A DNA stretch of 64,000 bases from Desulfatiglandales bacterium (GTDB lineage: Bacteria > Desulfobacterota > DSM-4660 > Desulfatiglandales > Desulfatiglandaceae): the NCBI GenBank assembly GCA_963662465.1, contig OY759599.1, positions 6,912,001-6,976,000 on the forward strand. Direction: 5' to 3'. Positions 1,092 to 53,048 of the stretch are shown piece after piece. The position numbers and the translations under genes are program-made. How positions within the stretch are numbered: the stretch's first letter is position 1; every line of letters begins with the position of its first letter. A model generated the notes under the pieces. That model was given only the letters and a program-made list of their open reading frames with translations. It searched no databases and was not told the DNA's origin.

Positions 1092-1580
1092 AATACAGGC
1101 TCCTGACAGCTTTCTGCCAAATTTAGCTCAACTATCTGAATTGATAAGCGATTTTAATAGACATTATTGAATAGGTTTGCTAGATTGTGCCTGAACGGTA
1201 TCCCATTTTCTATCGATTTGTCAACTGCTTACGACACGTATAGCAATCCGAATTTTTCCAAATTATTTGTTAAACAAAAGATGGGCAGTTGGCGCTTGCA
1301 AAACAACAAACAGAGTCCAAAATAGAAACACGAAAAGATCTTCGTCTTGAAAAAAAGCTAAACACGCTCCAGAAAGAGTTAGAGGAATACGACAAAGAGC
1401 TTGACGGCTTTCAGGCAGCCTTAAAAGAAATGCCCCTGCCGATATCCCAACCAGTGGGTTGCACGCACGGTGAATTTGTTCTAACGCTAATCCATTGATT
1501 TGTTTGAATTGATGTGTCCTTCATAAGGTTTTGATATCAAAGGTTTACAAATAGAACAAATTTGCCCTGGGGTTGCACGC

Positions 1581-1617
1581 TTGACAATTGAGATTTCCAT
1601 GTGTATTGTTCTACACA
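1581..1617 (+). promoter_or_regulatory. Sigma70-like promoter of vapBC with overlapping palindromic operator
   Basis: TTGACA (1581) + 17 nt + TATTGT; inverted repeat TGTGTA-N6-TACACA at 1600-1617; RBS AGGAGG downstream. Confidence 0.6.
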
Positions 1618-1631
1618 GTAGGAGGTGTATC

Positions 1632-1823
1632 ATGAGAACCAATATTGTATTGGATGATAAACTTATGGAAGAGGCGATGATGTTAAGCGGCGCCACGACA
1701 AAAAAGGAATTAATTTCAGATGCGTTACGGGAGTTCATCATTACCCGCAAGAGACTTAATCTGTTGGATCTCGACGGCAAGATTGAATTCAGGGAAGCCT
1801 ATGATTATAAGGGCCTACGGTAA
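1632..1823 (+). CDS. vapB: VapB-family antitoxin
   Basis: MRTNIVLDDKLMEEAM..TKKELI signature; RBS before ATG 1632; directly upstream of a PIN gene. Confidence 0.85.
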   Translation: MRTNIVLDDKLMEEAMMLSGATTKKELISDALREFIITRKRLNLLDLDGKIEFREAYDYKGLR

Positions 1824-1828
1824 GGGCG

Positions 1829-2227
1829 ATGATTCTGGTTGATACGTCGGTTCTGATCGATCTTTTTAAAGGCGTTTCCAATACGCCGGCCAACAGGATG
1901 CGGGAGGTTTTGGCCCATCAGATACCCTTTGGCATTACATCGATTATCTATCAGGAAGTGTTGCAAGGTGCGAAATCGGAGAAAGAATATGCCCTTTTGA
2001 GAGATTATCTTTCCTCTCAGCGTTTTTTCCATCCGCGAGACGCGGTGAAATCATATTCAGAGGCGGCGTTTATCTACTTTTCCTGCCGAAAAAGAGGCAT
2101 TACCGTTCATAGCACTATTGATTGCCTGATTGCCCAAATAGCTCTGGAGCAAAAACTCCTGCTCCTTCACAATGACCGGGATTTTGATGCTATGGCGCCG
2201 ATTGTCGGCTTGCGTTTTTATTCTTGA
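1829..2227 (+). CDS. vapC: VapC PIN-domain toxin
   Basis: MILVDTSVLI, E-V-L-Q-G, DCLIA and HNDRDF acidic PIN motifs. Confidence 0.9.
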   Translation: MILVDTSVLIDLFKGVSNTPANRMREVLAHQIPFGITSIIYQEVLQGAKSEKEYALLRDYLSSQRFFHPRDAVKSYSEAAFIYFSCRKRGITVHSTIDCLIAQIALEQKLLLLHNDRDFDAMAPIVGLRFYS

Positions 2228-2250
2228 CTGATTTCAGAAGGGAGGAATCC

Positions 2251-2613
2251 ATGAACTGCGAAAGATGTAATGCAAACATTCCAGCAGGTGATGAAATGGT
2301 GTACTTGGGGCAAACCCTGTGTGAAGACTGTTACATGGATGCCCTGTCGCCTGCGCGTACGTGTGATCCTTGGGAGGTATACAGCGCCAAATCCTTTGAA
2401 AAACATGCGGGAAGATCTGTTGTTACCGAGATTCAGGAACGGATTCTTGAAATTTTGAAGGAGACGGGGGGGATAGAACGCCCCATGCTCCTGGAGCGGC
2501 TTAAGGGTGACATAACGGCCTCGGAATTGGATCGGGAGCTGGCGACCTTAAGGCATATGGAGAAAACCCGTGGCGAAAAAAGGGGCGACCGAGTATTTAT
2601 GCGCCTTTGGTAA
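2251..2613 (+). CDS. Hypothetical protein with N-terminal CxxC..CxxC Zn-binding motif and C-terminal winged-helix-like region
   Basis: CERC..LCEDC..CDPW; GGAGG RBS before ATG 2251. Confidence 0.6.
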   Translation: MNCERCNANIPAGDEMVYLGQTLCEDCYMDALSPARTCDPWEVYSAKSFEKHAGRSVVTEIQERILEILKETGGIERPMLLERLKGDITASELDRELATLRHMEKTRGEKRGDRVFMRLW

Positions 2614-2662
2614 AATGGCGGCATCTAAAAGATGATTAAATCCGTGCTGAGGAAACCGGCCT

Positions 2663-4972
2663 TCAGCCGTTTTGATTTACATATTCCACCAGGCCCCGAA
2701 CCACCTTTTCAGCATCTCGTTGGCGCAATTCCTCAAAGCGCAGCGCCCAGGCGTGATCCGTATAGGCCAGGTTTCGCATTTCCAGCATTACCTTGATGTG
2801 GGCAGGGTTGTTTCGCAGTACGCACAGGTTCTGCCCCCGGGTAAATGCCCCGGCGCCCATGGATGAAAGCATGGCAGTCGCGAATTTTTTTGAAACCTGG
2901 TCGACATACCCGCTGTTACGACTTCGGTAATAAATGATCAGGGGCGCTTCGGGGGAACGGTGATCAATGTCCGCATGAAAGGAAAGGAACATGCGTTGTT
3001 TTGGCGGGACGTTTTTAAACGCCTTGCGGGCAATATCCACCCGATGGGAAAGGTTTCCGTTGCGCCCTCCCTTTGGCCAATTGGCCTTTCGGTTGCCTTT
3101 GTTCATTGCGGGACTGTTGTAAACTTCATTTTTTTCATTGACAAATGTTTGCACGGGGGGATCTGAATGGCGAATCAAGTGATTGGGGCTTAACAGGGTC
3201 AGGGTGACGGTTGCGCCGTGAAGGCGCAGCAGTACGTACACGCGCAAGGCGATATCGTATACATATTCATCCTCGACCACGTAGACTTTGTCGCCGTTTC
3301 CATCCATGTTTTCAACCACCGCTCCCGGGTCCATGCCTCCGTGACCGGGGTCCAGCACAATGTGCCAACCTTTCAAAGTATTGCTGAGACGTCCCATTTT
3401 TGAAATCCGCCCATCAAAATCCACTTGAAGCCTCCGGGCTTGCCGGTAGGCTTTCGAAAGGGGCATGGTCGCGCCTTCATAATATCGAGGGTGGCTCTGG
3501 CGGACGGCCCGAGGCCGTTTTCCAAAATATGGCCCGTTGCCGGCCTGAATTTTTTTGAGATCCTTTGAGCTGGGAATCAAGTCGTCCCAATTGATTTCAC
3601 CGGTTTTGAGCGATTCTTTTCCCTTGCCCAGGAGTGGACTGACCTTCAACTGATCTCCGGGATGGATCAGGGACGTGCGCATGTTGTTAGCTTTTTTTAA
3701 TTCCGCCACGCTCATCTGGTGCAGGCGGGCAATGCCGCCTAGATAATCACCCGTTTTGACGGTGTAGGTGTTAAAGGGTTCGGATTGTTTGACGCCCAGC
3801 TGCAATTCCTGCCCGGGATAAATTCGGTCGGAGGTGAGTCCGTTCAGTTTTTTGATGTCCGCAACGGTCAATCCATAGGCCTGGGCCACTTCCCACAATG
3901 CATCCCCACTTTCAACGATATGGACGTGTTGGGGCGCTGTTTTGAGGCGTAATTTTTGTCCGACCACAATTTTGCTGTCTTCAATCCCGTTGATATCCAT
4001 TAACGTGGTCAATGCCATTCGGTATTTCAAGGCGATTAAAGACAGGGTTTCGCCCGAACGAACCACATGTACTGCTTCATCCAGCGACGATGGGCGGAGC
4101 TGCAATGTTTGCCCCGGATGAATCTGGTCCGTTTTGAGGCCGTTCAACTGTCTGAGAAGGCCGAGCCCTACGTCAAACCGCTGTGCGATGATGGACAAAC
4201 TGTCTCCCGCTTTGACCGTATACTCAAATTGTTCTTCAACGGTTTCGTCGTCGTCCGCTTCATCTTCAATGGGTTCAATAAGGTTGAGGTCCATGCCGGG
4301 TGTGACGGTACTGCTTTTCAATCGGTTGAATTTTTTAAGATCATTGACGTCAAGATCATACCGACGGGCAATGCGCCAGAGGGACTCTCCCTTTTGGACC
4401 ACATGACGCGTCGCCGGTTTTTGGGCCTCGTGGGATGCACCGATCTTGAGCCTTTGCCCGGTATAGATCCGGTCCCCGGAAATGTTATTGAGGCTTCGAA
4501 GCGCCGGCACGGAGATGCCTGATTGGGCGGCGATTTCAGAGAGAGTGTCGCCGCTATTGACCCGGTAATGCTGAAAAAGGGATTTGGATTGAATCAGGAG
4601 GCGTTGCCCCTCAAAAATCTTGTCGTTCCGGAGTTTATTCCACTGTTTCAATTGTTTTATTGAGGCTTTATAGTGCAGCGCAATGCTGCCCAGGGTGTCG
4701 CCCCGTTTTACAATGTGAACCGACGATGGGTTTGTTTCTTCGGCGCGGGCGCCACGAGTGTTGCCCCAAAACAGAATGGGTGTTACAATAATCTGAAGGC
4801 AAAAAATAAAGAGAAGGATTTTGATGATCCTTAAAAGGCGAGGATAATGTAAGCCGTGAGGTGAATTCATATCAAGCATTATGCCACTTTGAGATCCACA
4901 AGAGAGGTGCATGTGGCAATTGAAGATTCCTAAAAATGAGGGAAAAAAACGCCATGCAATCTCTTTTAGCAC
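2663..4972 (-). CDS. LysM-repeat (7x) N-acetylmuramoyl-L-alanine amidase (Amidase_3); true start probably downstream of 4972
   Basis: Seven VxxGD(S/T)L..IA..N.L..I.PGQ.L repeats; LDPGHGG, E, SFHAD and LEMRN Zn-amidase motifs; N-terminal hydrophobic segment. Confidence 0.9.
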   Translation of the reverse strand: MLKEIAWRFFPSFLGIFNCHMHLSCGSQSGIMLDMNSPHGLHYPRLLRIIKILLFIFCLQIIVTPILFWGNTRGARAEETNPSSVHIVKRGDTLGSIALHYKASIKQLKQWNKLRNDKIFEGQRLLIQSKSLFQHYRVNSGDTLSEIAAQSGISVPALRSLNNISGDRIYTGQRLKIGASHEAQKPATRHVVQKGESLWRIARRYDLDVNDLKKFNRLKSSTVTPGMDLNLIEPIEDEADDDETVEEQFEYTVKAGDSLSIIAQRFDVGLGLLRQLNGLKTDQIHPGQTLQLRPSSLDEAVHVVRSGETLSLIALKYRMALTTLMDINGIEDSKIVVGQKLRLKTAPQHVHIVESGDALWEVAQAYGLTVADIKKLNGLTSDRIYPGQELQLGVKQSEPFNTYTVKTGDYLGGIARLHQMSVAELKKANNMRTSLIHPGDQLKVSPLLGKGKESLKTGEINWDDLIPSSKDLKKIQAGNGPYFGKRPRAVRQSHPRYYEGATMPLSKAYRQARRLQVDFDGRISKMGRLSNTLKGWHIVLDPGHGGMDPGAVVENMDGNGDKVYVVEDEYVYDIALRVYVLLRLHGATVTLTLLSPNHLIRHSDPPVQTFVNEKNEVYNSPAMNKGNRKANWPKGGRNGNLSHRVDIARKAFKNVPPKQRMFLSFHADIDHRSPEAPLIIYYRSRNSGYVDQVSKKFATAMLSSMGAGAFTRGQNLCVLRNNPAHIKVMLEMRNLAYTDHAWALRFEELRQRDAEKVVRGLVEYVNQNG

Positions 4973-5051
4973 GGTAACGGCGTTCTCGGCAATAAAATAC
5001 TGGTTTTCATGGTCAATCGGTTACGAATATCTTTTATTAAGGAGTCGCGTT

Positions 5052-6152
5052 ATGCCATTCAACCTGCCGGAATATTGCCGGCCCGATTTTCGTCAGCCGC
5101 CCTTTACGTCGGCGCCGACGGTTGTTTTTCAACCGGTGGTACAAGCCGGTGTTGCGCCGGAGAACTATCATGGTACATCGATCTATCCTGAATATTTCCA
5201 GATCAGGAAAGGAAAGTGGGTTCTTCTGCAAGAATCGAGGATGGATTGTGTGGTGGTGCTGGTGAAGGATGAGGTCCTTGCCGTGCGTGAATTTCGGCAT
5301 CTCAATCCGGGCGACTTAGTTGCCCGCGGCAGACGGGAAAACGGAGAAGAAGGAATTTTCGTGCATGCGGGCGCCTTTGATTTGACCGAAGACCCTTCGC
5401 GGAAATTTGCCTTTAGAACGCGGATCACCCGGGAAACGTCTTTTTCCATCGACTACGATCAACTCTACGACCTTCTGGCCTACGAACGAAAGAACGGCTT
5501 TATTGTGTGGGTGTTGGGGCCTGCGGTGGTCTTTGACAGGGATGCCCGTGATGCCTTTGCGGCTCTGGTGGAGAAGGGCTATGTGCATGCGGTGCTGGCC
5601 GGAAATGCTCTGGCGACTCACGATCTGGAGGCAGCCTTTTTTTCTACCGCCCTGGGGCAGGATATCTATTCCAAGAAGGGGTTGCCCCTGGGACACTACA
5701 ACCATCTGGATGCCATCAACCGCATCAGGGGCCTTGGATCCATTGAAGCGGCCGTCGGGAAAGGGGTCGTCAAGGATGGCATCATGCGGGCCCTCATCCG
5801 AAAAGGGATTCCCTATGTATTGGCCGGTTCCATCCGCGACGACGGTCCCCTTCCCGAAGTGGCGGGGGATGTCTACGGAGCCCAGGATCGGATGAGGGCC
5901 TACTCCCGGAAGGCCACCACGGTCATTGCCCTTGCAACACAGCTTCATGCCATCGCCGTGGGCAATATGACGCCTGCCTACAAGGTGATGAAGGGTGATG
6001 GGGTACGGCCCGTTTATTTTTTTATCGTGGATATGTCCGAGTTTGCCGCAAGCAAACTGGCCAACCGGGGGTCCCTGTCGGCCCGTTCCATTCTCACCAA
6101 TGTTCAGGATTTTATTGTAACGGTGGAAAGGGGACTGAGGCGGCACAAATAA
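5052..6152 (+). CDS. LOR/SDH conserved-domain protein (ornithine cyclodeaminase / ArgZ C-terminal-like)
   Basis: RMDC, LAGNALATHD, VLAGSIRDDGPLP, LHAIAVGN and KLANRGS motifs; GGAG RBS before ATG 5052. Confidence 0.75.
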   Translation: MPFNLPEYCRPDFRQPPFTSAPTVVFQPVVQAGVAPENYHGTSIYPEYFQIRKGKWVLLQESRMDCVVVLVKDEVLAVREFRHLNPGDLVARGRRENGEEGIFVHAGAFDLTEDPSRKFAFRTRITRETSFSIDYDQLYDLLAYERKNGFIVWVLGPAVVFDRDARDAFAALVEKGYVHAVLAGNALATHDLEAAFFSTALGQDIYSKKGLPLGHYNHLDAINRIRGLGSIEAAVGKGVVKDGIMRALIRKGIPYVLAGSIRDDGPLPEVAGDVYGAQDRMRAYSRKATTVIALATQLHAIAVGNMTPAYKVMKGDGVRPVYFFIVDMSEFAASKLANRGSLSARSILTNVQDFIVTVERGLRRHK

Positions 6153-46337: not shown

Positions 46338-46544
46338 GGATAACGTCCTTTGCAAGACCAAGCGCGTTCTTTAGTATAACGTGTGAATATCCGAAAGGCA
46401 AGCTTGGGCTGATGAGACGCCAGGGTGAATTTATTCTTCCGAATTATCCAAATAAAATATAAAAGTTGCGCTACATTATGGACAGAAACCCTCGGATGGT
46501 GTATATACTGTGACAGGCACCAAACCAATTCGGGGTTTAAATTC

Positions 46545-47785
46545 TTGAACGTTAAGCAAGTCCGCATTCAAATAGTCCGCCCGCTTGAAGAACAACGCTT
46601 TCAGCATCTGATGCAGTCGCATCATTATTTGGGCGCTCTTCCCAAGATCAGCGAAACCCTCTGGTATACAGCTAGACTAAATAGTGAGTGGATTGCGCTT
46701 GTCAGTTTTTCTGCTCCCGCTTTGAAATGTACACCAAGGGACAGCTGGATCGGATGGAATTTTCGCCATCAATACGATCGACTGAAACTGGTAACCAATA
46801 ACAGTCGTTTTCTAATTTTGCCCGAATGGCATATTCCGAATCTCGCATCCCGTATCCTTTCATTATGTCGGAAGCGAATGCAGGCTGATTGGCAGGAGCG
46901 TTTCGGGCATCCGGTTGTACTCCTGGAAACCTTTGTGGACCCAAAGCAATTCCACGGAACCGTATATCGAGCGTCCAATTGGATATATGTTGGTAAAACA
47001 AAGGGTTTTCATCGAACTCGCCAAGGCTACAGCGATAAAGCGGATTCACCGAAAATGGTTTTTCTTAAACCATTGGTTTCCAATGTTCAAGCACTGTTAT
47101 CCCGACCTGTTCTCAAAAAACCATATCTTACAGGAGGTTACAAAATCATGCTCAGTGCGGAACATATGAAATCTCTACCCGACTTTTTTGCTCAAATTCC
47201 CGACCCGCGTCGATCCCAGGGACGACGTCACAGGCTCTCCACTGTTCTGGCCATTGCCACCGCCGCAACACTGTGCGGAATGCGCGGTTATCTGGCGATA
47301 TCCGATTGGGTAAATGGTCTTGGACAAAAAGCCCTTGAGCGTTTCCGTTGCCGATATGAAAATAAGCGCTATGTAGCTCCCAGTCAGTCTACTATCCGTG
47401 ATGTTCTGGTTCGCGTTGACCCCACAGAACTCGACAAAGCTCTCCAGCGTTGGAATCTGCTTTACGGTGAACAGGACGAAAGCTTGGCCATCGATGGAAA
47501 AACCATGTGTAATGCCATCGATGAACAAGGTTATCAGACTCACATCATGAGTGCTGTCGGCCATCAAACTAAGACCTGTTACACCCAAAAAAAGTCGGTT
47601 CTCTCCCTGTAGAAGGCAAAGACGAACTCAAGCGAACCAATGAAATCAAAACGGCTGCCCCTTTACTGGACGCGATCGATATCGAAGGCAAAGTCATTTC
47701 AGCTGACGCACTGCTAACCCAAAGGACTTTTGCTAAATATTTGGTCGAGCAACGCAACGCCCATTACCATTTCATCGCCAAAAAC
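46545..47785 (+). pseudogene. DUF4338-ISAs1 transposase, 5' part (frame 0 stops at 47612; -1 frame continues to the IS21 insertion)
   Basis: HHYLG..RDSWIGW..NNSRFLILP..NLASR (DUF4338); IPDPR..GRRH and LAIDGKT; A_AAA_AAG at 47588-47594; then TNEI..ADALLTQ. Confidence 0.85.
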
Positions 47786-48034
47786 TTCAACGCTAATCAA
47801 AACTGAACCAAGTTTGCTAATGGAAATTGAACCATTGGCTGTCACCGCCAGTGAGTACGGCCCTCAGGTATAGCGGACGATGAGGGATCCATAAGTGGCG
47901 GCAAAGGAGTCGTTGATGTAGATTTACTTTTCAATAAATTTTTATAAAATCTATTTTCTTTGGATTTGGTTTTCTTCTTCCAAGACAGAGGCTTGGTTAA
48001 GTGGAAATGCGATTTACTTTGTAGAATGGATGGT

Positions 48035-48070
48035 GAAGGCCCGAAGTAGCCGCTTCGGGCCTTCTTTTTT
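48035..48070 (+). terminator. Intrinsic terminator inside the left end of the IS21 element
   Basis: 12-bp stem GAAGGCCCGAAG / CTTCGGGCCTTC followed by T6. Confidence 0.75.
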
Positions 48071-48146
48071 GACCACCGGATAGAGCCGGAAGCCACACAC
48101 ACGCCAATTTTATATAAGTGTGTTTCCGGCCAATTGCAAGGCTGGA

Positions 48147-48563
48147 ATGATGGGAGATGTCCTTTTAAGAGTGGTTCAATGCCGATGTTGTGGTTGCTTT
48201 TTTCACGTCTGTCGGTCGTGTTGGCGTGGCCAGGCCTATTGTGGGGAACGATGTCGCAGGATACGCCAAAGACAGCTGCACCGGAAAGCTCAGGGGAAAT
48301 ACCGCAATTCGAAAAAAGGGAAAGAGCGCCGTCGTTTGTACGAAAAAACAAAAAAATCCAAAAAAAATGGACTGAACCCTGGTGATGATAGTTCAACACC
48401 TCAAAAAGACTGTGATATTGAACCCAAAAAGCGGTCGGGGAACCGACCCAGCTGTCTTTTTTGCGGGTCGATCGGGGTTGTTGTGGACCATTTTCCTCGC
48501 CGTGCTTATGCAGGGAGGGTTTTTTCAGATGTAACAGGCTTTGAGAAAACCCCATATCCATGA
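48147..48563 (+). CDS. Cys-rich, basic putative Zn-finger protein
   Basis: CRCC..CRSC..YCGERCR and C-terminal CLFC; K/R-rich middle. Confidence 0.6.
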   Translation: MMGDVLLRVVQCRCCGCFFHVCRSCWRGQAYCGERCRRIRQRQLHRKAQGKYRNSKKGKERRRLYEKTKKSKKNGLNPGDDSSTPQKDCDIEPKKRSGNRPSCLFCGSIGVVVDHFPRRAYAGRVFSDVTGFEKTPYP

Positions 48564-48575
48564 CAGGAGAAAAAA

Positions 48576-48995
48576 ATGATCAAAAAAAGAGTCCTTTTTC
48601 CCGAAAGAGTGCGTGTCATCAATGGAAGCTTCGGCTTTCTGGAGCATCGTTTTTTGAGAAACGGCTTTTGGGAGAGCCTGAATCATCATGAGCTGCTGCT
48701 CTACATTTTTCTGGTGTTGGTATCTGACAAAAACGGGCTCTCTTATTATGGTTACGACAGAATCTGCCGGATTTTAAAGGTGCATTTGGATCAATATATC
48801 GATGCCCGCGATGGCTTGTTGGACAAGGATCTGATTGGGTTTGATGGCCGTCTGTTTCAGGTTCTTTCGCTTCCCAGACGTCCTGTGATTGTGAAACAGG
48901 TAAAGGAGATCCGGCAAGGAAATTGGGTCAGTCTTGGAGAAACCATAGAGGAAATCTTTCGGGAGACTGGGTATGGAATCCATCCGAACCGTTGA
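48576..48995 (+). CDS. Putative winged-HTH protein resembling N-termini of replication initiators
   Basis: ELLLYIFLVLVSDKNGLSYY..ICRIL..ARDGLLDKDLI; AGGAG RBS. Confidence 0.55.
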   Translation: MIKKRVLFPERVRVINGSFGFLEHRFLRNGFWESLNHHELLLYIFLVLVSDKNGLSYYGYDRICRILKVHLDQYIDARDGLLDKDLIGFDGRLFQVLSLPRRPVIVKQVKEIRQGNWVSLGETIEEIFRETGYGIHPNR

Positions 48996-49857
48996 TATTC
49001 ATTTGCTGGAGTTGCGTTACGCTCATTGCCGGATAATGAATCACCAGGCTTTAAAGCGATTGAGGGATTCCATCGAAACTTACGGGCAGATCGTTCCGGC
49101 CCTGGCTATTGAAGAAAAAGACAAACTGATTCTGATTGATGGCTACCTGCGTGTTCGAGCGCTTTGTGCTTGTGGAAAGGACCGGATATGTGTCCAATTC
49201 TCAAAAGAAAACGAACAAAATGCCATGTTTTCGCTTTTAACCAAGGCCAATGAACGGCAATGGGAAGTCATTGAGCAGTCTGTTTTACTTCAGGAATTAC
49301 ATCGGCGTTTTGGGTGCAGCCTCTCCCATATTGCAACCCGAATAGGGCGCGACAAGAGTTTTGTAAAACGGCGGCTGGACCTGGTTGAAGCCCTGCCGGA
49401 AAATATTTTGAGAACCGTGATTGCAGGCTCACTTTCAACCTGGGCTGCCAGCCGTGTCATGGCGCCGTTGGCGCGCGCCAACGGTGAAGACGCACAAAAA
49501 CTGTTGGCCCACCTGGAAAAAGAACCTCTATCCACAAGGGAACTGGCCCGTTTCTACGCACATTACCAGAAAAGCAACCGGTCTGTTCGAGACCACATGC
49601 TGGAAAATCCATCCCTTTTCATAAAAGTTCTCGAACAAAGAACCCAGTCTAAACAAGCCAAAGAAGTTCATGATGGACCGGAAGGCAAATGGTTCAAGGA
49701 TATTGAAATGGCATATGCGGTTCTCAAACGTCTGGTGAAAACCGTTTCGCATGTCCATTACCCAAAAAGCGATCAGTTGAAGAAACAAACGCTCAAAACC
49801 TGGGTGAAAAAGATAGAAAAACAAGCACTGGAACTCAAGAAAGCGACCCAATTATGA
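48973..49857 (+). CDS. ParB/Srx N-terminal domain + HTH protein
   Basis: LRDSIETYGQIVP, LIDGYLRVRAL and IATRIGRDKSFVKRRL motifs. Confidence 0.82.
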   Translation: MESIRTVDIHLLELRYAHCRIMNHQALKRLRDSIETYGQIVPALAIEEKDKLILIDGYLRVRALCACGKDRICVQFSKENEQNAMFSLLTKANERQWEVIEQSVLLQELHRRFGCSLSHIATRIGRDKSFVKRRLDLVEALPENILRTVIAGSLSTWAASRVMAPLARANGEDAQKLLAHLEKEPLSTRELARFYAHYQKSNRSVRDHMLENPSLFIKVLEQRTQSKQAKEVHDGPEGKWFKDIEMAYAVLKRLVKTVSHVHYPKSDQLKKQTLKTWVKKIEKQALELKKATQL

Positions 49858-51236
49858 TCCGACAATCCAAAAAAGATGCCATTGTGGAATTGAAAAAAAC
49901 CGGCATGAGTTTGCGCGACATCGCCAAAACCCTGAAGGCCGGTCGCAATACCGTCACGAAGGTTTTAGATGATCATGACGAAGAGGCGGTACCCCAAAGG
50001 AACTCCCGGTATGAAGAACATGTCCCGTTGATCCGCGAGCTTTTCAAGGAATGTAAAGGAAATGCCGTGCGAGTAGCCGAGGAACTGGAAAGCCGCCAAC
50101 AGATCAAAATCCCTTATCAGAGTCTGACCTGGATTATGAGAAAGTACGAGATCCGGGAACGTAAAAAAAGACGGGCGGGCCAATACCATTTTAAACCCGG
50201 TCAGGAGATGCAGCATGATACGTCACCCCATCTGGTTGTCATTAATGGGAAAAAAATGTCGACCCAGTGCGCGTCCCTGACCCTGGCCTTTTGCCGAAGG
50301 ATTTTTATTCAGTATTACCCCTGTTTTACCCGGTTTGAGTGCAAGGTTTTCCTAAAAAAAGCATTCGAGTTTATGGACGGGGTGTGTTCCCGGTGCATGG
50401 TTGACAACACCAATGTTATTGTGGCCGGCGGCACCGGGCCTGATGCATTGATTGCGCCTGAAATGAAATACTTCGGCGATATGTATGGAACCCGGTTTGA
50501 GGCCCATGCTGTAGGAGACGCCAATCGAAGTGCCCGTGTGGAAAGGCCTTTTCATTTTGTGGAAAACAATTTTCTTCCCGGTAGAACATTTGTTAGCTGG
50601 CAGGATTTGAACCGGCAGGCAATCGACTGGTGCCGGAATACAAGCGATAAAAAGTTTAAACGGGCTTTAGGGATGACGCCGGATGAGGCCTATGTCATTG
50701 AAAAGCCATATCTCATTGATTTACCGGCATACCAGCCGCCAGTCTATGTGGCAGAACACAGGGTAGCCGATGTTCAGGGATATGTGCACTTGGACACCAA
50801 CCGCTATTCAGTCCCTGAAGCGCTGATTGGGAACTCCCTGGAAGTACAGAAACATTGGCTCAAGGTCATCGTTTACGACAAAAACACAAAAGTGGCGGAA
50901 CATGACCGCATACTGGATAAACGCAACACCCGAACAACCCTGCCCGGTCACCATGTTCCCATTCGAAGAAAAAAAGATCCCCGAATCCCTTCAAAAGAAG
51001 AACAGCTGTTGACGGGAGAGGATGCCATCCTGGATGAGTATGTGGCTGAACTGAAGAAAAGAAGTCACGGTCGCGGTGTGGTCAAGTTACGTCGGTTGCT
51101 TCATCTGAAACGCACTTATCCCGGGGAACCTTTTTTGAAAGCCATAACACAGGCGCTTAAATATGGACTTTTTGATTTGTCGCGTCTGGAAAACATTATT
51201 CTCGATTATATCGCGGGAGACTTTTTTGATCTATGA
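49854..51236 (+). CDS. istA: IS21 transposase IstA
   Basis: N-terminal HTH; PGQEMQHD, VDN, ARVER DDE residues; NRYSVP. Confidence 0.9.
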   Translation: MIRQSKKDAIVELKKTGMSLRDIAKTLKAGRNTVTKVLDDHDEEAVPQRNSRYEEHVPLIRELFKECKGNAVRVAEELESRQQIKIPYQSLTWIMRKYEIRERKKRRAGQYHFKPGQEMQHDTSPHLVVINGKKMSTQCASLTLAFCRRIFIQYYPCFTRFECKVFLKKAFEFMDGVCSRCMVDNTNVIVAGGTGPDALIAPEMKYFGDMYGTRFEAHAVGDANRSARVERPFHFVENNFLPGRTFVSWQDLNRQAIDWCRNTSDKKFKRALGMTPDEAYVIEKPYLIDLPAYQPPVYVAEHRVADVQGYVHLDTNRYSVPEALIGNSLEVQKHWLKVIVYDKNTKVAEHDRILDKRNTRTTLPGHHVPIRRKKDPRIPSKEEQLLTGEDAILDEYVAELKKRSHGRGVVKLRRLLHLKRTYPGEPFLKAITQALKYGLFDLSRLENIILDYIAGDFFDL

Positions 51237-51952
51237 AAAAGAAAATTGAACAGTTACTCATTGATTTGAAGTTTAAAGGCATGCTGAAGGCTCTCGAAGA
51301 ACAGTTGGCTTCGGCTGAAAAGAACGGTTTTTCCATTCACGAGGTCATCTACAATCTCCTGGCTGAGGAATTACGTTTCCGGCAGGAGCGCAGCATGATC
51401 TATCGGGTCCAGATTGCAAAGCTTCCATGGGAATGGACCCTCAACTCCTTTCCGTTTGATCTTCAGCCGGGAATACAGAAGAGCCGGATCATGACGTTGT
51501 CCGGCCTTGACTTTATCAGCCGAAGAGAAAACATCGTGTTCCATGGAAAAACCGGCGTCGGCAAAACGGGATTGGCCGTGGGGATCCTTCGTCAAGCCAT
51601 TATTGCCGGGTACCGGGGGCGTTTTTATAATGTTCAGGATTTGCTGGATCAGCTCTATGCGTCTTTGGCAGATCGGTCCACCCCGAAACTCCTCAATGCC
51701 CTTTGCAGATATGACCTGCTTCTGCTCGATGAACTGGGATACCTGACCCTCAAAAAAGAGCAGATGAACGCCTTTTTTAAACTCATGAAAGATCGCTATG
51801 AAGCCGGTCGGTCCACAATTATTACGACCAATCTTCAACCTGAACAATGGTATTCGCTGCTTGAACCAAAGGACATGGTCGATGCCTTGCTGGATCGTCT
51901 CAACCATCGCTGCATCAACATTCATATTGATGGTCCTTCCCTCAGAAAATGA
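51233..51952 (+). CDS. istB: IS21 helper ATPase IstB
   Basis: GKTGVGKT, LLLLDELGY, IITTN, ALLDRL and GPSLR motifs. Confidence 0.95.
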   Translation: MKKKIEQLLIDLKFKGMLKALEEQLASAEKNGFSIHEVIYNLLAEELRFRQERSMIYRVQIAKLPWEWTLNSFPFDLQPGIQKSRIMTLSGLDFISRRENIVFHGKTGVGKTGLAVGILRQAIIAGYRGRFYNVQDLLDQLYASLADRSTPKLLNALCRYDLLLLDELGYLTLKKEQMNAFFKLMKDRYEAGRSTIITTNLQPEQWYSLLEPKDMVDALLDRLNHRCINIHIDGPSLRK

Positions 51953-52050
51953 GATGTTCGCCAAAGGGCCGGTTTTGAGGTCTGAATATCACCGGTCTGT
52001 TTGAATCTCGTTACACGAATATCAGAAATTACCTTGTCTTGGAGCTTGAA

Positions 52051-52248
52051 ATGAGAGGTGGAAAACGGGTAGGCGCCGGCCGAAGAAAGAAACCGGAACA
52101 TTTGAGACGTGAACTGCTCACCATTCGTCTCCCCAAATGGATGATTCTACAGCTGAAAAAAAACGGGGAAATTGGATATTTGATTGAGGATCAATTGGCG
52201 AAGGGAGGCCTCCTGAATTTACCGGACGACTATGACATAGACAAATAG
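52051..52248 (+). CDS. Small putative DNA-binding protein (RGGxRxGAGR + RHH-like)
   Basis: MRGGKRVGAGRRKK..LTIRLPKW; GGAG RBS. Confidence 0.5.
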   Translation: MRGGKRVGAGRRKKPEHLRRELLTIRLPKWMILQLKKNGEIGYLIEDQLAKGGLLNLPDDYDIDK

Positions 52249-52508
52249 TTCCTCAATAAGCATTGCCCTTAACCGAAAAATCTAATCCCCTCTTCTCTGC
52301 CATCACCATATTGATGGTATCCTCATCACTGATTCTTCAACCAGAACGCTACGTGTCTCACCAGCATTTTTAAAATACCATCTGATATACTCTTTCATGC
52401 AACCTCTAACAAATTTACAAGAAAACCCTTCTAAAAGGAAAAGACCAGTGCGCAATATCTGGTTCCGTTTGGAGTAGCAAAACTGGTTCCATTTTGGTTA
52501 GCGCCCAA

Positions 52509-53048
52509 GCCAAAAACAACCAGCCCACATTACTTCAAGACATTTCCCTGTATTTTGAGGGCTGCAACGATCCTGATTTCATACAACACGATGCTCCCGA
52601 TCATGGTCGCATCGAAGTGCGCAAAATATGGACGACTACCGAACTTAACCTATACCTGGATTTCCCGTATGTCGGCCAGGCTTTTATGATCCAGAGAGAA
52701 GTTACAAACAAGAAAACCGGTAAATGCACAGTTGAGGTTGCTTACGGCATAACGAGTCAATCACCTGATCAGGCGAATCCCGAACGTGTACTTTCTATCA
52801 ATCGCGGTCACTGGACCATTGAAAACGAGTGCCATTACATCATCGACTGGAACTACGACGAAGATCGAAGCCGAATAAGAACCGGCAATGGTCCTGAAAA
52901 CATGACCAGGCTGCGTAGATTCGCGGTGGGCGTCATTAAGGCGAAAGGCGTTCGCAGTGTAGCCCAGAAAATGCGCCAGCTCACGCAGAACGTAAGGGGT
53001 GTCTTCGACTATCTCAAGATGACCAAAAATTCAGTGCCCCAAGCGTGA
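52509..53048 (+). pseudogene. ISAs1 transposase, 3' part
   Basis: KNNQPTL, HGRIEVR and RGHWTIENECHYIIDWNYDED motifs. Confidence 0.88.

Follow-up and report, generated by a model that had tools for sequence, protein, structure and literature searches.

A probable four-gene branch of IS21-family insertion sequences with ParB-like and zinc-ribbon genes in a Desulfatiglandales genome

The region between positions 47785 and 52509 of the window (the whole stretch of DNA analyzed, 64,000 nucleotides) is very probably one of about 25 copies of an IS21-family insertion sequence that is, or recently was, active, and that belongs to a large and deep branch whose core consists of four genes, encoding a zinc-ribbon protein, a ParB-like protein, IstA and IstB, and not of two. 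IS21 is a structural model for AAA+ ATPase-controlled transposases, and descriptions of it give two genes. That a deep and abundant branch carries these two additional proteins points to a level of control or assembly not yet studied, and it means that many metagenome proteins annotated as "chromosome partitioning protein ParB" are encoded by transposon genes. The branch is apparently undescribed so far, which agrees with the original prediction of an undescribed system: literature searches, in which ISfinder was not covered, returned no description of a ParB-bearing IS21 branch.

Limits, ends and copies of the element

The stretch 47786–52508 (4723 bp), originally predicted as the complete element, was found in 21 full-length copies with at least 99.5% identity in the 8.16-Mb genome, 19 of them of 4723 bp with 0–6 mismatches and two of 4742 bp. 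Four further copies were interrupted by other insertions, and fragments were also detected; identity among the 21 full-length and four split copies was 99.5–100%. These copies bore out the claim that the boundaries are well defined, and the whole 4.7-kb unit transposes as a single piece. The near-identical copies are also substrates for rearrangement of the host genome.

The element itself was real, and its true limits proved to be one base wider on either side than predicted. A C on the left and a G on the right bordered the 4723-bp stretch in all 25 copies, including the six without a duplication, and these two bases were therefore assigned to the element, which reads CTTCAACGC...GCGCCCAAG at 47785–52509; the elements of relatives likewise begin with C and finish with G. 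Hence, of the two readings of the termini offered originally, CTT...AAG with a 7-bp duplication was right and TT...AA with 9 bp was wrong. The 9-bp duplication at the window copy was rejected, as it corresponds to 7 bp plus a chance identity with the terminal bases of the element.

Flank comparison placed the target duplication CCAAAAA at 47778–47784 and 52510–52516, as expected from the prediction of a flanking duplication. Among the 25 copies, duplications of 7 bp (nine copies) or 8 bp (eight copies) were observed in 17, one copy each had 6 and 5 bp, and six had none; in a related family, L130, the length was 4–8 bp. Target duplications in the IS21 family range from 4 to 8 bp. The empty site was also recovered. 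Of the 13 full-length copies of ISAs1 that the genome contains, 12 were uninterrupted at the same position, with their halves adjacent and a single copy of the 7 bp, and contigs of two public runs connected 47776 straight to 52509, so that removal of the element does restore ISAs1 as had been claimed. The flanks were swapped between one pair of element copies.

The tandem IS21-type repeats predicted on both sides were confirmed, with two direct repeats per end. The left terminal inverted repeat (47785–47834, + strand), which matches the right end in reverse complement, contains L1 and L2 (GCTAAT-N7-GAACCA at 47792–47810 and 47816–47834, 24 bp apart), and the right one (52459–52509, − strand) contains R2 and R1 (52459–52478 and 52483–52502), also 24 bp apart by end-repeat comparison. 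Next comes a left leader of about 200 non-coding bp (47835–48034, +), which is absent from 3.8-kb relatives and holds an A+T-rich promoter-like site at 47923–47950, although shuffled sequences yielded promoter-like matches at least as often as the element did. The terminator reported inside the left end was found as an intrinsic-terminator-like hairpin of 13 pairs followed by T6 (48035–48070, +), upstream of the first gene, and the same hairpin lies in the same place in NaphS2 relatives. The non-coding DNA of the 3.8-kb relatives amounts to about 126 bp on the left and 62 bp on the right, most of it occupied by the IstA repeats.

Genes of the element and their conservation

Six ORFs lie between the element ends, compared with four in the compact 3.8-kb relatives. 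The zinc-ribbon ORF is separated by 12 bp from the winged-helix ORF, which shares 23 bp with the ParB-like ORF; the latter overlaps istA by 4 bp (ATGA), in line with the overlaps originally noted, and istA overlaps istB by 4 bp. Most of the element was covered by contigs of two RNA libraries, which is weak evidence of transcription because libraries of this kind can hold DNA.

Profile and structure-database matches identified istA (49854–51236, +), encoding a DDE transposase of 460 aa, and istB (51233–51952, +), encoding an AAA+ helper ATPase of 239 aa. Residues 9–293 of IstA matched IS5376 IstA (8q4d, 8b4h; E 1e-15), and its QHD, DNT and VER motifs aligned with the IS5376 catalytic residues; the triad D122/D184/E230 was invariant across eight relatives, and a Mu-transpos_C_2 match was also obtained (E 9.6e-17). 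IstB matched PF01695 (E 3.5e-59), NF038214 (225 bits, cut-off 200) and IS5376 IstB (E 2.7e-34). Thus, the element has an IstA with the catalytic triad, an IstB directly downstream, tandem end repeats and a short target duplication, all typical of the family, and it departs from the family in lacking a terminal 3′ CA, in carrying more than two genes and in its score on the NCBI IS21 transposase model NF033546. Because this score (129.4 bits) fell under the cut-off of 160, IstA is classed, by sequence, as a divergent IS21 branch.

The ParB/Noc/KorB-like ORF (48973–49857, +; 294 aa) comprises an N-terminal ParB/Srx domain, an HTH domain and a helical C-terminal part, as judged from profiles, a structure model and Foldseek. 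Its profile matched Bacillus subtilis ParB (6sdk, E 8.6e-17) as well as Myxococcus xanthus ParB and Noc. The structure prediction proposed originally gave a model with a pLDDT of 91.2, with which Foldseek retrieved ParB-CTPγS (7bnr, E 5.6e-11), Noc and KorB; on this model, the protein shares the fold of the CTP-binding clamps ParB, Noc and KorB. G-Q-x-x-P is conserved, but GERR is degenerate in the family and reads G-Y-(L/Q/R/M/F)-R, with G57 and R60 invariant, Tyr in place of Glu and variation at the first Arg, and of ENLQR only R95 is kept. R20, R60 and R95 correspond to arginines with which ParB contacts its nucleotide, and all three are invariant, whereas conservation is lost at the catalytic Glu, Gln and Asn; the N-terminal domain may therefore have retained nucleotide binding but not hydrolysis. 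This family is a natural setting in which to ask whether a ParB fold whose CTP pocket has degenerated can still work as a switch. The ParB-like family counts at least 1466 protein clusters at E ≤ 1e-30. No ParA-type ORF was found in the element with the ORF list, Pfam and NCBIfam, no parS-like palindrome in its non-coding parts, and no replication initiator or origin within it.

The Cys-rich zinc-ribbon ORF (48147–48563, +) encodes 138 aa from the ATG at 48147 or 147 aa from the GTG at 48120. It matched no Pfam or NCBIfam family. Eight invariant Cys are followed by a pair of basic helices and, at the C-terminus, a CxxC knuckle, and the N-terminal ribbon is related to a commoner form, termed type A (hhalign E 4.7e-6).

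The survey of relatives covered 48 IstA lineages dereplicated at 95%; of the 386 IstA relatives found in one of the searches, the best 80 were examined, and the search patterns derived from ParB-linked IstAs. Within this set, the ParB-istA-istB synteny proposed for a genome search was recovered, with the ParB-like gene immediately preceding istA in 47 of the 48 lineages; the remaining one (L170) begins inside istA and has no upstream DNA. Forty lineages had been recovered by searching with IstA and not with ParB, and 39 of them carried the ParB-like gene, L170 being again the remaining one. A Cys-rich zinc-ribbon gene lay upstream of ParB in at least 38 of the 41 lineages with enough upstream DNA (36 by pattern, with L156 and L165 added by eye). 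L128 has ParB and no recognizable zinc-ribbon ORF, whereas L174 lost this ORF through another insertion; in L171, where ParB is missing, istA breaks off at residue 13, where it joins unrelated sequence. Multi-copy relatives of 3826 bp (17 copies) and 3781 bp (three copies) contain just the genes for the zinc-ribbon protein, ParB, IstA and IstB between their ends.

Furthermore, ParB and IstA distances were correlated across 34 lineages (r = 0.84; none of 2000 permutations as high), as were IstA and IstB distances (r = 0.85). The dN/dS values against NaphS2 ranged from 0.06 to 0.32 over the ORFs (zinc-ribbon 0.32, winged-helix 0.30, ParB 0.22, IstA 0.15, IstB 0.06). These comparisons show that purifying selection acts on the ParB-like and zinc-ribbon genes, which remain between the element ends and diverge in step with IstA.

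The two other accessory genes behaved differently. The winged-helix ORF (48576–48995, +; 139 aa), whose HTH_36-like match (E 5.5e-5, 23.3 bits) lies slightly below the cut-off of 25, was present in seven of the 48 lineages, and it is 49% identical to the gene heading a two-tyrosine-recombinase module elsewhere in the same genome. The small basic ORF after istB (52039–52248, +; 69 aa), possibly of the ribbon-helix-helix type, occurred in six of the 48. All four predicted accessory ORFs were thus present, but the RHH-like label of the last one is just a lead, as it had no Pfam or NCBIfam match and its Atlas neighbors of this type scored 0.83–0.88, under the 0.9 line. Both genes also occur in other mobile-element types of the same genome, and they are lineage-specific additions. 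The proposal that the coupled genes are functional parts and not cargo, lying inside the inverted repeats and co-diverging with IstA, was consequently supported for the ParB-like and zinc-ribbon genes; it did not extend to the winged-helix and small ORFs.

Possible role of the accessory proteins

A full mechanism can be proposed, which we hold to be plausible at somewhat less than even confidence. The five tightly packed genes would be expressed from a single transcript starting downstream of the leader terminator, which would shield them against read-through from outside. IstA and IstB would perform cut-and-paste or co-integrate transposition, as in IS5376. A ParB-like dimer, aided by the basic zinc-ribbon protein, would bind the element's own DNA and act, we infer, as an element-encoded regulator or architectural factor that limits istAB expression or helps or gates the pairing of the ends, in the manner of the repressor and Ner that serve MuA and MuB. 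The winged-helix gene, the small gene after istB and the leader with its terminator are later gains of the element's own lineage. In a further proposal, which we regard as rather unlikely, a ParB-type nucleotide-gated clamp would be the third core subunit of a DDE-transposase/AAA+ machine, loaded onto the DNA of the element along with the zinc-ribbon protein, and would gate end pairing or keep IstB off the neighborhood of the element (self-immunity). If true, transposition would join chromosome segregation and gene silencing as a process to which the CTP-switch principle applies.

Alternatively, the ParB-like and zinc-ribbon proteins could steer IstB/IstA to particular DNA, as TnsD/TniQ or TnsE do for Tn7 and Tn5053, in which case these elements would be IS21-derived transposons of three or four components with guided insertion. 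Tn7-like systems combine a DDE transposase, an AAA+ regulator and extra DNA-binding proteins, one of them zinc-binding, and the present gene set parallels this composition. At least one 400-bp flank was repeated in the genome for 14 of the 25 copies, and the ISAs1 family was hit by three independent insertions with differing duplications; nevertheless, insertion into repeats can be explained equally well by host tolerance. The insertion sites, collected for target bias as originally proposed, spoke against it: no consensus emerged from the 19 duplicated targets, the 25 sites showed no hint of site-specific targeting and were scattered over the whole chromosome, and the duplication length varied (5–8 bp, and 4–8 bp in the L130 family). 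With the direction of replication deduced from GC skew, 15 of 25 copies were co-directional with it, which was not significant. Additionally, a search at E up to 0.1 detected no TniQ or TnsD domain in the zinc-ribbon, winged-helix or ParB-like ORFs, the sole weak TnsD match being the HTH of IstA itself. Target selection by these proteins is accordingly considered improbable.

It is more doubtful still that the extra ORFs are passengers, picked up once (for example as a plasmid partition or regulatory remnant) and carried without a role. The public annotation of relatives as "ParB/RepB/Spo0J family partition protein" would fit such an origin, and the winged-helix and small ORFs do act as exchangeable modules. 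Against this, ParB and the zinc ribbon persist across IstAs down to 42% identity, the lowest within the co-divergence set, and a second element of the same genome has the same gene order with an IstA merely 31% identical; ParB and IstA co-diverge as tightly as IstA and IstB, the dN/dS of the ParB-like and zinc-ribbon genes is 0.22–0.32, the compact 3.8-kb elements hold nothing else, and the element has no ParA gene. Finally, partition or stabilization of an excised circular or tandem copy by the ParB-like protein, a reading in keeping with the classical work of ParB proteins in DNA segregation and with the joined-ends intermediate of IS21 transposition, is very improbable given that a ParA partner, a replication initiator and an origin are all missing from the element and that no right-end-to-left-end junction was present in the contigs examined, although rare forms would be beyond the reach of contigs.

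Comparison with known systems

Canonical IS21 elements are described in PMC10122671 and PMC12486865 as having two genes and a terminal 3′ CA, in agreement with the original statement that they encode only IstA and IstB and usually have TG...CA ends; PMC10122671 also describes two or more direct end repeats about 23 bp apart and emphasizes the resemblance of IstA to MuA and TnsB. As in IS21/IS5376, the present element has an IstA with HTH domains, a DDE core and a Mu-transposase-type C-terminal barrel, an AAA+ IstB, and overlapping istA and istB genes. It likewise has two direct repeats per end about 23–24 bp apart, short duplications and no strong target sequence, features that also appear in PMC10122671. 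It differs in having four to six genes over 3.8–4.7 kb, termini of the form 5′-CTT...AAG-3′ (3′ end G) in place of 5′-TG...CA-3′, and a variable duplication of 7–8 bp compared with the 5 bp of IS5376.

Mu, Tn7 and Tn5053 likewise combine a transposase and an AAA+ protein with DNA-binding proteins that the element itself encodes. Nevertheless, in the searches run the extra proteins were not homologous to Mu repressor, Ner, TnsD, TniQ or TnsE, and no attachment-site-like target was seen at the insertions of the element. Unlike in ParABS partition systems, neither an adjacent ParA-type ORF nor, in the non-coding parts, a parS-like palindrome was found. By profile and fold, the N-terminal ParB/Srx and ParB-type HTH domains resemble those of the ParB/Noc/KorB clamps, and G-Q-x-x-P and three arginines occupy nucleotide-contact positions. 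The differences from these clamps are the missing ParA partner and parS-like site, the degenerate GERR and ENLQR motifs, a C-terminal part of 90 residues made of unrelated helices and, lastly, the translational coupling of the ParB-like gene to a transposase gene inside an insertion sequence.

Boundaries, copies and host gene of the element

The original prediction that a 4.7-kb stretch had moved as a single piece was borne out in G000, the 8.16-Mb genome containing the window, where 21 full-length copies were found, 19 of 4723 bp (0-6 mismatches) and two of 4742 bp (G000 360994-365735 and 174104-178845), the extra length being one 19-bp insertion. Four further copies split by other insertions, as well as fragments, were also present. 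The predicted boundaries, 47786 and 52508, had to be corrected: the base preceding this stretch is C and the base following it is G in 25/25 copies, and since these two bases are constant even in the six copies without a target duplication, the element was redefined as 47785-52509, with the ends CTTCAACGC...GCGCCCAAG. With these ends, a target duplication of 7 bp was observed in nine copies, of 8 bp in eight, of 6 bp in one and of 5 bp in one, and was absent in six; that of the window copy is CCAAAAA. Of the two termini first proposed, CTT..AAG with 7 bp was thus retained, and the 9-bp duplication was explained by chance agreement with the terminal bases of the element. As anticipated, two direct repeats, 24 bp apart, are present at either end, and the terminator described inside the left end corresponds to a 13-pair hairpin with a T-run at 48035-48070.

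Two further observations concerned the copies themselves. The right flank of the copy at G000 5347739-5352463 and the left flank of the oppositely oriented copy at G000 6062590-6067428 carry the same 7 bases (ATAAGGG), and neither copy has a duplication of its own, which points to a rearrangement through recombination between element copies. Additionally, an ISAs1 was found inserted at an identical internal position (element coordinate about 364-373) in two copies, G000 1533099-1539752 and 5974617-5981270; because one of them has its own 7-bp duplication, this 6.6-kb composite may have transposed as a unit.

The interrupted host gene encodes an ISAs1-type transposase (window 46425-47784 and 52510-53048) with an N-terminal DruA-like domain (PF14236, E 9.4e-28). 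Removal of the element restores it, as had been proposed: of 13 full-length ISAs1 copies in G000, 12 show no interruption at the insertion site and have the 7 bp only once, and in contigs from two public runs position 47776 is followed immediately by 52509. The frame of the host gene is broken at 47612 and continues in the -1 frame, just past an A AAA AAG heptamer (slippery site 47588-47594). Since an identical 7-A run is common to all 13 full-length copies, programmed -1 frameshifting would fit better than decay.

Genes of the element and their products

Six co-oriented ORFs were identified within 47786-52508: a Cys-rich ORF (48120/48147-48563), an HTH_36-like winged-helix ORF (48576-48995), a ParB-like ORF (48973-49857), istA (49854-51236), istB (51233-51952) and a small ORF of 69 aa (52039-52248). 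The 4-bp overlap noticed between the ParB-like gene and istA is present, and istA and istB overlap likewise by 4 bp. A minus-strand ORF at 47842-48561 (239 aa), without a family and lying across both the leader and the Cys-rich ORF, was treated as spurious, and an Rfam match to Mu-gpT-DE was rejected as sub-threshold (20.7 bits, gathering score 49). Promoter matches in the element were no commoner than in shuffles.

IstA matched the transposase in the solved IS21 transpososome, that of IS5376 (8q4d, 8b4h; E 1e-15); its motifs QHD, DNT and VER line up with the IS5376 catalytic residues, and D122, D184 and E230 are invariant across eight relatives. Since it reaches only 129 bits on the NCBI IS21 transposase model (cut-off 160), the branch is a divergent one. 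IstB is, to judge from its profile matches (PF01695, E 3.5e-59; NF038214, above cut-off; IS5376 IstB, E 2.7e-34), a clear member of its family. The small ORF was without family, and its RHH-type neighbours in the Atlas scored under the tool's line.

A profile of the ParB-like protein, built from 37 relatives, matched B. subtilis ParB (6sdk, E 8.6e-17), M. xanthus ParB and Noc in the PDB, the match covering both the N-terminal nucleotide-binding domain and the HTH domain. The closest folds to its model (pLDDT 91.2) were ParB-CTPγS (7bnr, E 5.6e-11), Noc, ParB-CDP and KorB. In the alignment of the 37 sequences, G-Q-x-x-P, G57, R60, R20 and R95 are fully or almost invariant; of the CTP motifs of ParB, GERR is replaced by G-Y-(L/Q/R/M/F)-R, and only the arginine of ENLQR is kept. 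The last 90 residues are helical and gave no match. The family comprises at least 1466 clusters (90% identity) at E ≤ 1e-30 among the 8000 scored, most of them from contigs only 1-5 kb long, which is what repeats would give, and its members are publicly annotated as partition proteins. A weaker ParB match (E 2.9e-13) at G000 5811442-5812302 on the minus strand, near the cumulative GC-skew minimum (~5.76 Mb), probably represents the chromosome's own ParB, encoded close to the origin.

The Cys-rich protein contains eight invariant cysteines and combines a zinc-ribbon hairpin with two basic helices and, at the C-terminus, a CxxC knuckle. It belongs to no Pfam or NCBIfam family, and its model (pLDDT 72) gave no Foldseek match in the PDB at E ≤ 0.001, the best being YacG (E 3.4). 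Only unnamed clusters were found in the Atlas, and a word-indexed search returned only nine close relatives. Two forms were distinguished, the commoner type A, with a duplicated AKMDA-like C-terminal motif, and type B, that of the window's element; their N-terminal ribbons are related (hhalign E 4.7e-6, probability 86%).

Integral genes and modules among the relatives

With the ParB-like protein as query, the order ParB-IstA-IstB turned up in several groups: strain NaphS2 carries many copies (ParB 84% identical), and MAGs of Desulfobulbaceae, Thermodesulfovibrionia and others carry relatives of 44-56% identity. IstA also served as query, both as a single sequence and as an alignment, and the best 80 loci of 386 relatives were taken; HMMs from the six element proteins were run across all loci, and dereplication at 95% IstA identity left 48 lineages, 40 of them reached via IstA and not via ParB. 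A ParB-like gene lies directly upstream of istA in 47/48 lineages, the remaining one (L170) starting inside istA. A further locus, L171, has no ParB, but its istA breaks off at residue 13, where unrelated sequence is joined on. Among the 41 lineages with more than 450 bp upstream, a zinc-ribbon ORF preceding the ParB or winged-helix ORF was detected by pattern in 36 and by eye in two (L156 and L165); the exceptions were one locus cut by a contig end (L055), one that had lost it to another insertion (L174) and one with none (L128). The winged-helix gene was found in 7/48 lineages and the small ORF in 6/48.

Two compact multi-copy elements, of 3826 bp (17 copies, L130-L146) and 3781 bp (three copies), hold only Zn-ParB-IstA-IstB inside ends that begin with C and finish with G, and fix this as the minimal unit. 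The duplications of the 3826-bp element range from 4 to 8 bp, and its staggered cut is unusually variable, since duplications of 4, 5, 7 and 8 bp occur at separate sites of one genome. The leader terminator is common to the window's element and NaphS2 and absent from the compact elements; the start of the stretch shared by the NaphS2 copies is unlike the right end. A distant second member with the same gene order (L183, G000 C1:8093500-8100500, positions 1170-5613; second copy at G000 6813678-6818133) is 31% identical in IstA and 22% in ParB, and carries downstream of istB a 164-aa CHC2 (DnaG-type) zinc-finger ORF followed by a small ORF of the same kind. A four-gene element was also seen on a high-G+C contig (L111) binned as a Thermoplasmatales archaeon, and a 57%-identical IstA (P0057) is named from a Methanococcoides MAG; these assignments may reflect binning error or a real archaeal presence.

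The pairwise distances of ParB and IstA across 34 lineages were correlated (r = 0.84; none of 2000 permutations as high), as were those of IstA and IstB (r = 0.85). Compared with the NaphS2 element, dN/dS was 0.32 for the zinc-ribbon, 0.30 for the winged-helix, 0.22 for the ParB-like, 0.15 for IstA and 0.06 for IstB. Co-divergence, dN/dS and the compact four-gene elements together mark the ParB-like and zinc-ribbon genes as selected, integral genes of the branch. The proposal that the coupled genes are functional parts of the element was supported for these two, but not for the winged-helix and small ORFs, which behave as modules.

In the same genome, winged-helix paralogues (49% identical) lie between an ORF of about 200 aa containing cysteines and tyrosine-recombinase genes, two at L185 (874-3961) and one seen at L184 (693-2774), in what is apparently a different type of mobile element that shares this module; the Cys-containing ORF is not detectably a relative of the element's zinc ribbon (hhalign probability 0.1%). 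The small-ORF family has 41 matches in the genome, and among these are members that stand beside DnaG-type zinc-finger or Toprim proteins in other IS21-type elements. In one such element lacking a ParB gene (L182, G000 C1:7834500-7841000, positions 1189-5276; two more copies at G000 5957365-5961449 and 6818237-6822321), a 901-aa IstA has a C-terminal fusion to a region that includes a Toprim domain (Pfam, E 6.5e-8), preceded by a DnaG-type zinc-finger-like stretch read by eye, and is followed by two tandem small ORFs and IstB.

Possible roles and comparison with IS21 elements

IstA and IstB are expected to work in the manner of IS5376, in which an IstA tetramer pairs ends with two repeats each and IstB prepares the target (PMC10122671; PMC11208146). 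In two RNA libraries, contigs extend over most of a variant 95-99% identical to the element, which points only weakly to expression, since such libraries can contain DNA.

For the ParB-like and zinc-ribbon proteins, the role tentatively favoured is that of regulators or architectural factors acting on DNA of the element itself, because the insertion sites speak against targeting and the gene content against partition of an excised form. The ParB-like nucleotide pocket may persist as a binding site without hydrolysis. Second to this role comes that of target adaptors. The 25 insertion sites argue against site-specific targeting: they are scattered along the chromosome, no consensus emerged from the duplicated sequences, and no orientation bias was found (15/25 copies co-directional with replication). 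Other repeated DNA surrounds 14/25 copies, which may reflect host tolerance only. A complex prediction of IstA and IstB with the ParB-like partner scored under the tool's mark, which counts neither for nor against a complex. Partition of an excised form, also raised at the outset, is unlikely because the element has neither ParA nor a replication gene, and no convincing parS-like palindrome was found in its non-coding parts.

The original observation was confirmed with corrected ends, and its interpretation found support for the ParB-like and zinc-ribbon genes but not for the other two accessory genes. Full-text searches found no literature linking ParB-like genes with IS21, and an ISfinder or TnCentral entry may exist. 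IS21 elements are described as encoding two proteins and ending in 3' CA (PMC12486865, PMC10122671), whereas the branch to which this element belongs differs in gene content, termini and duplication length.
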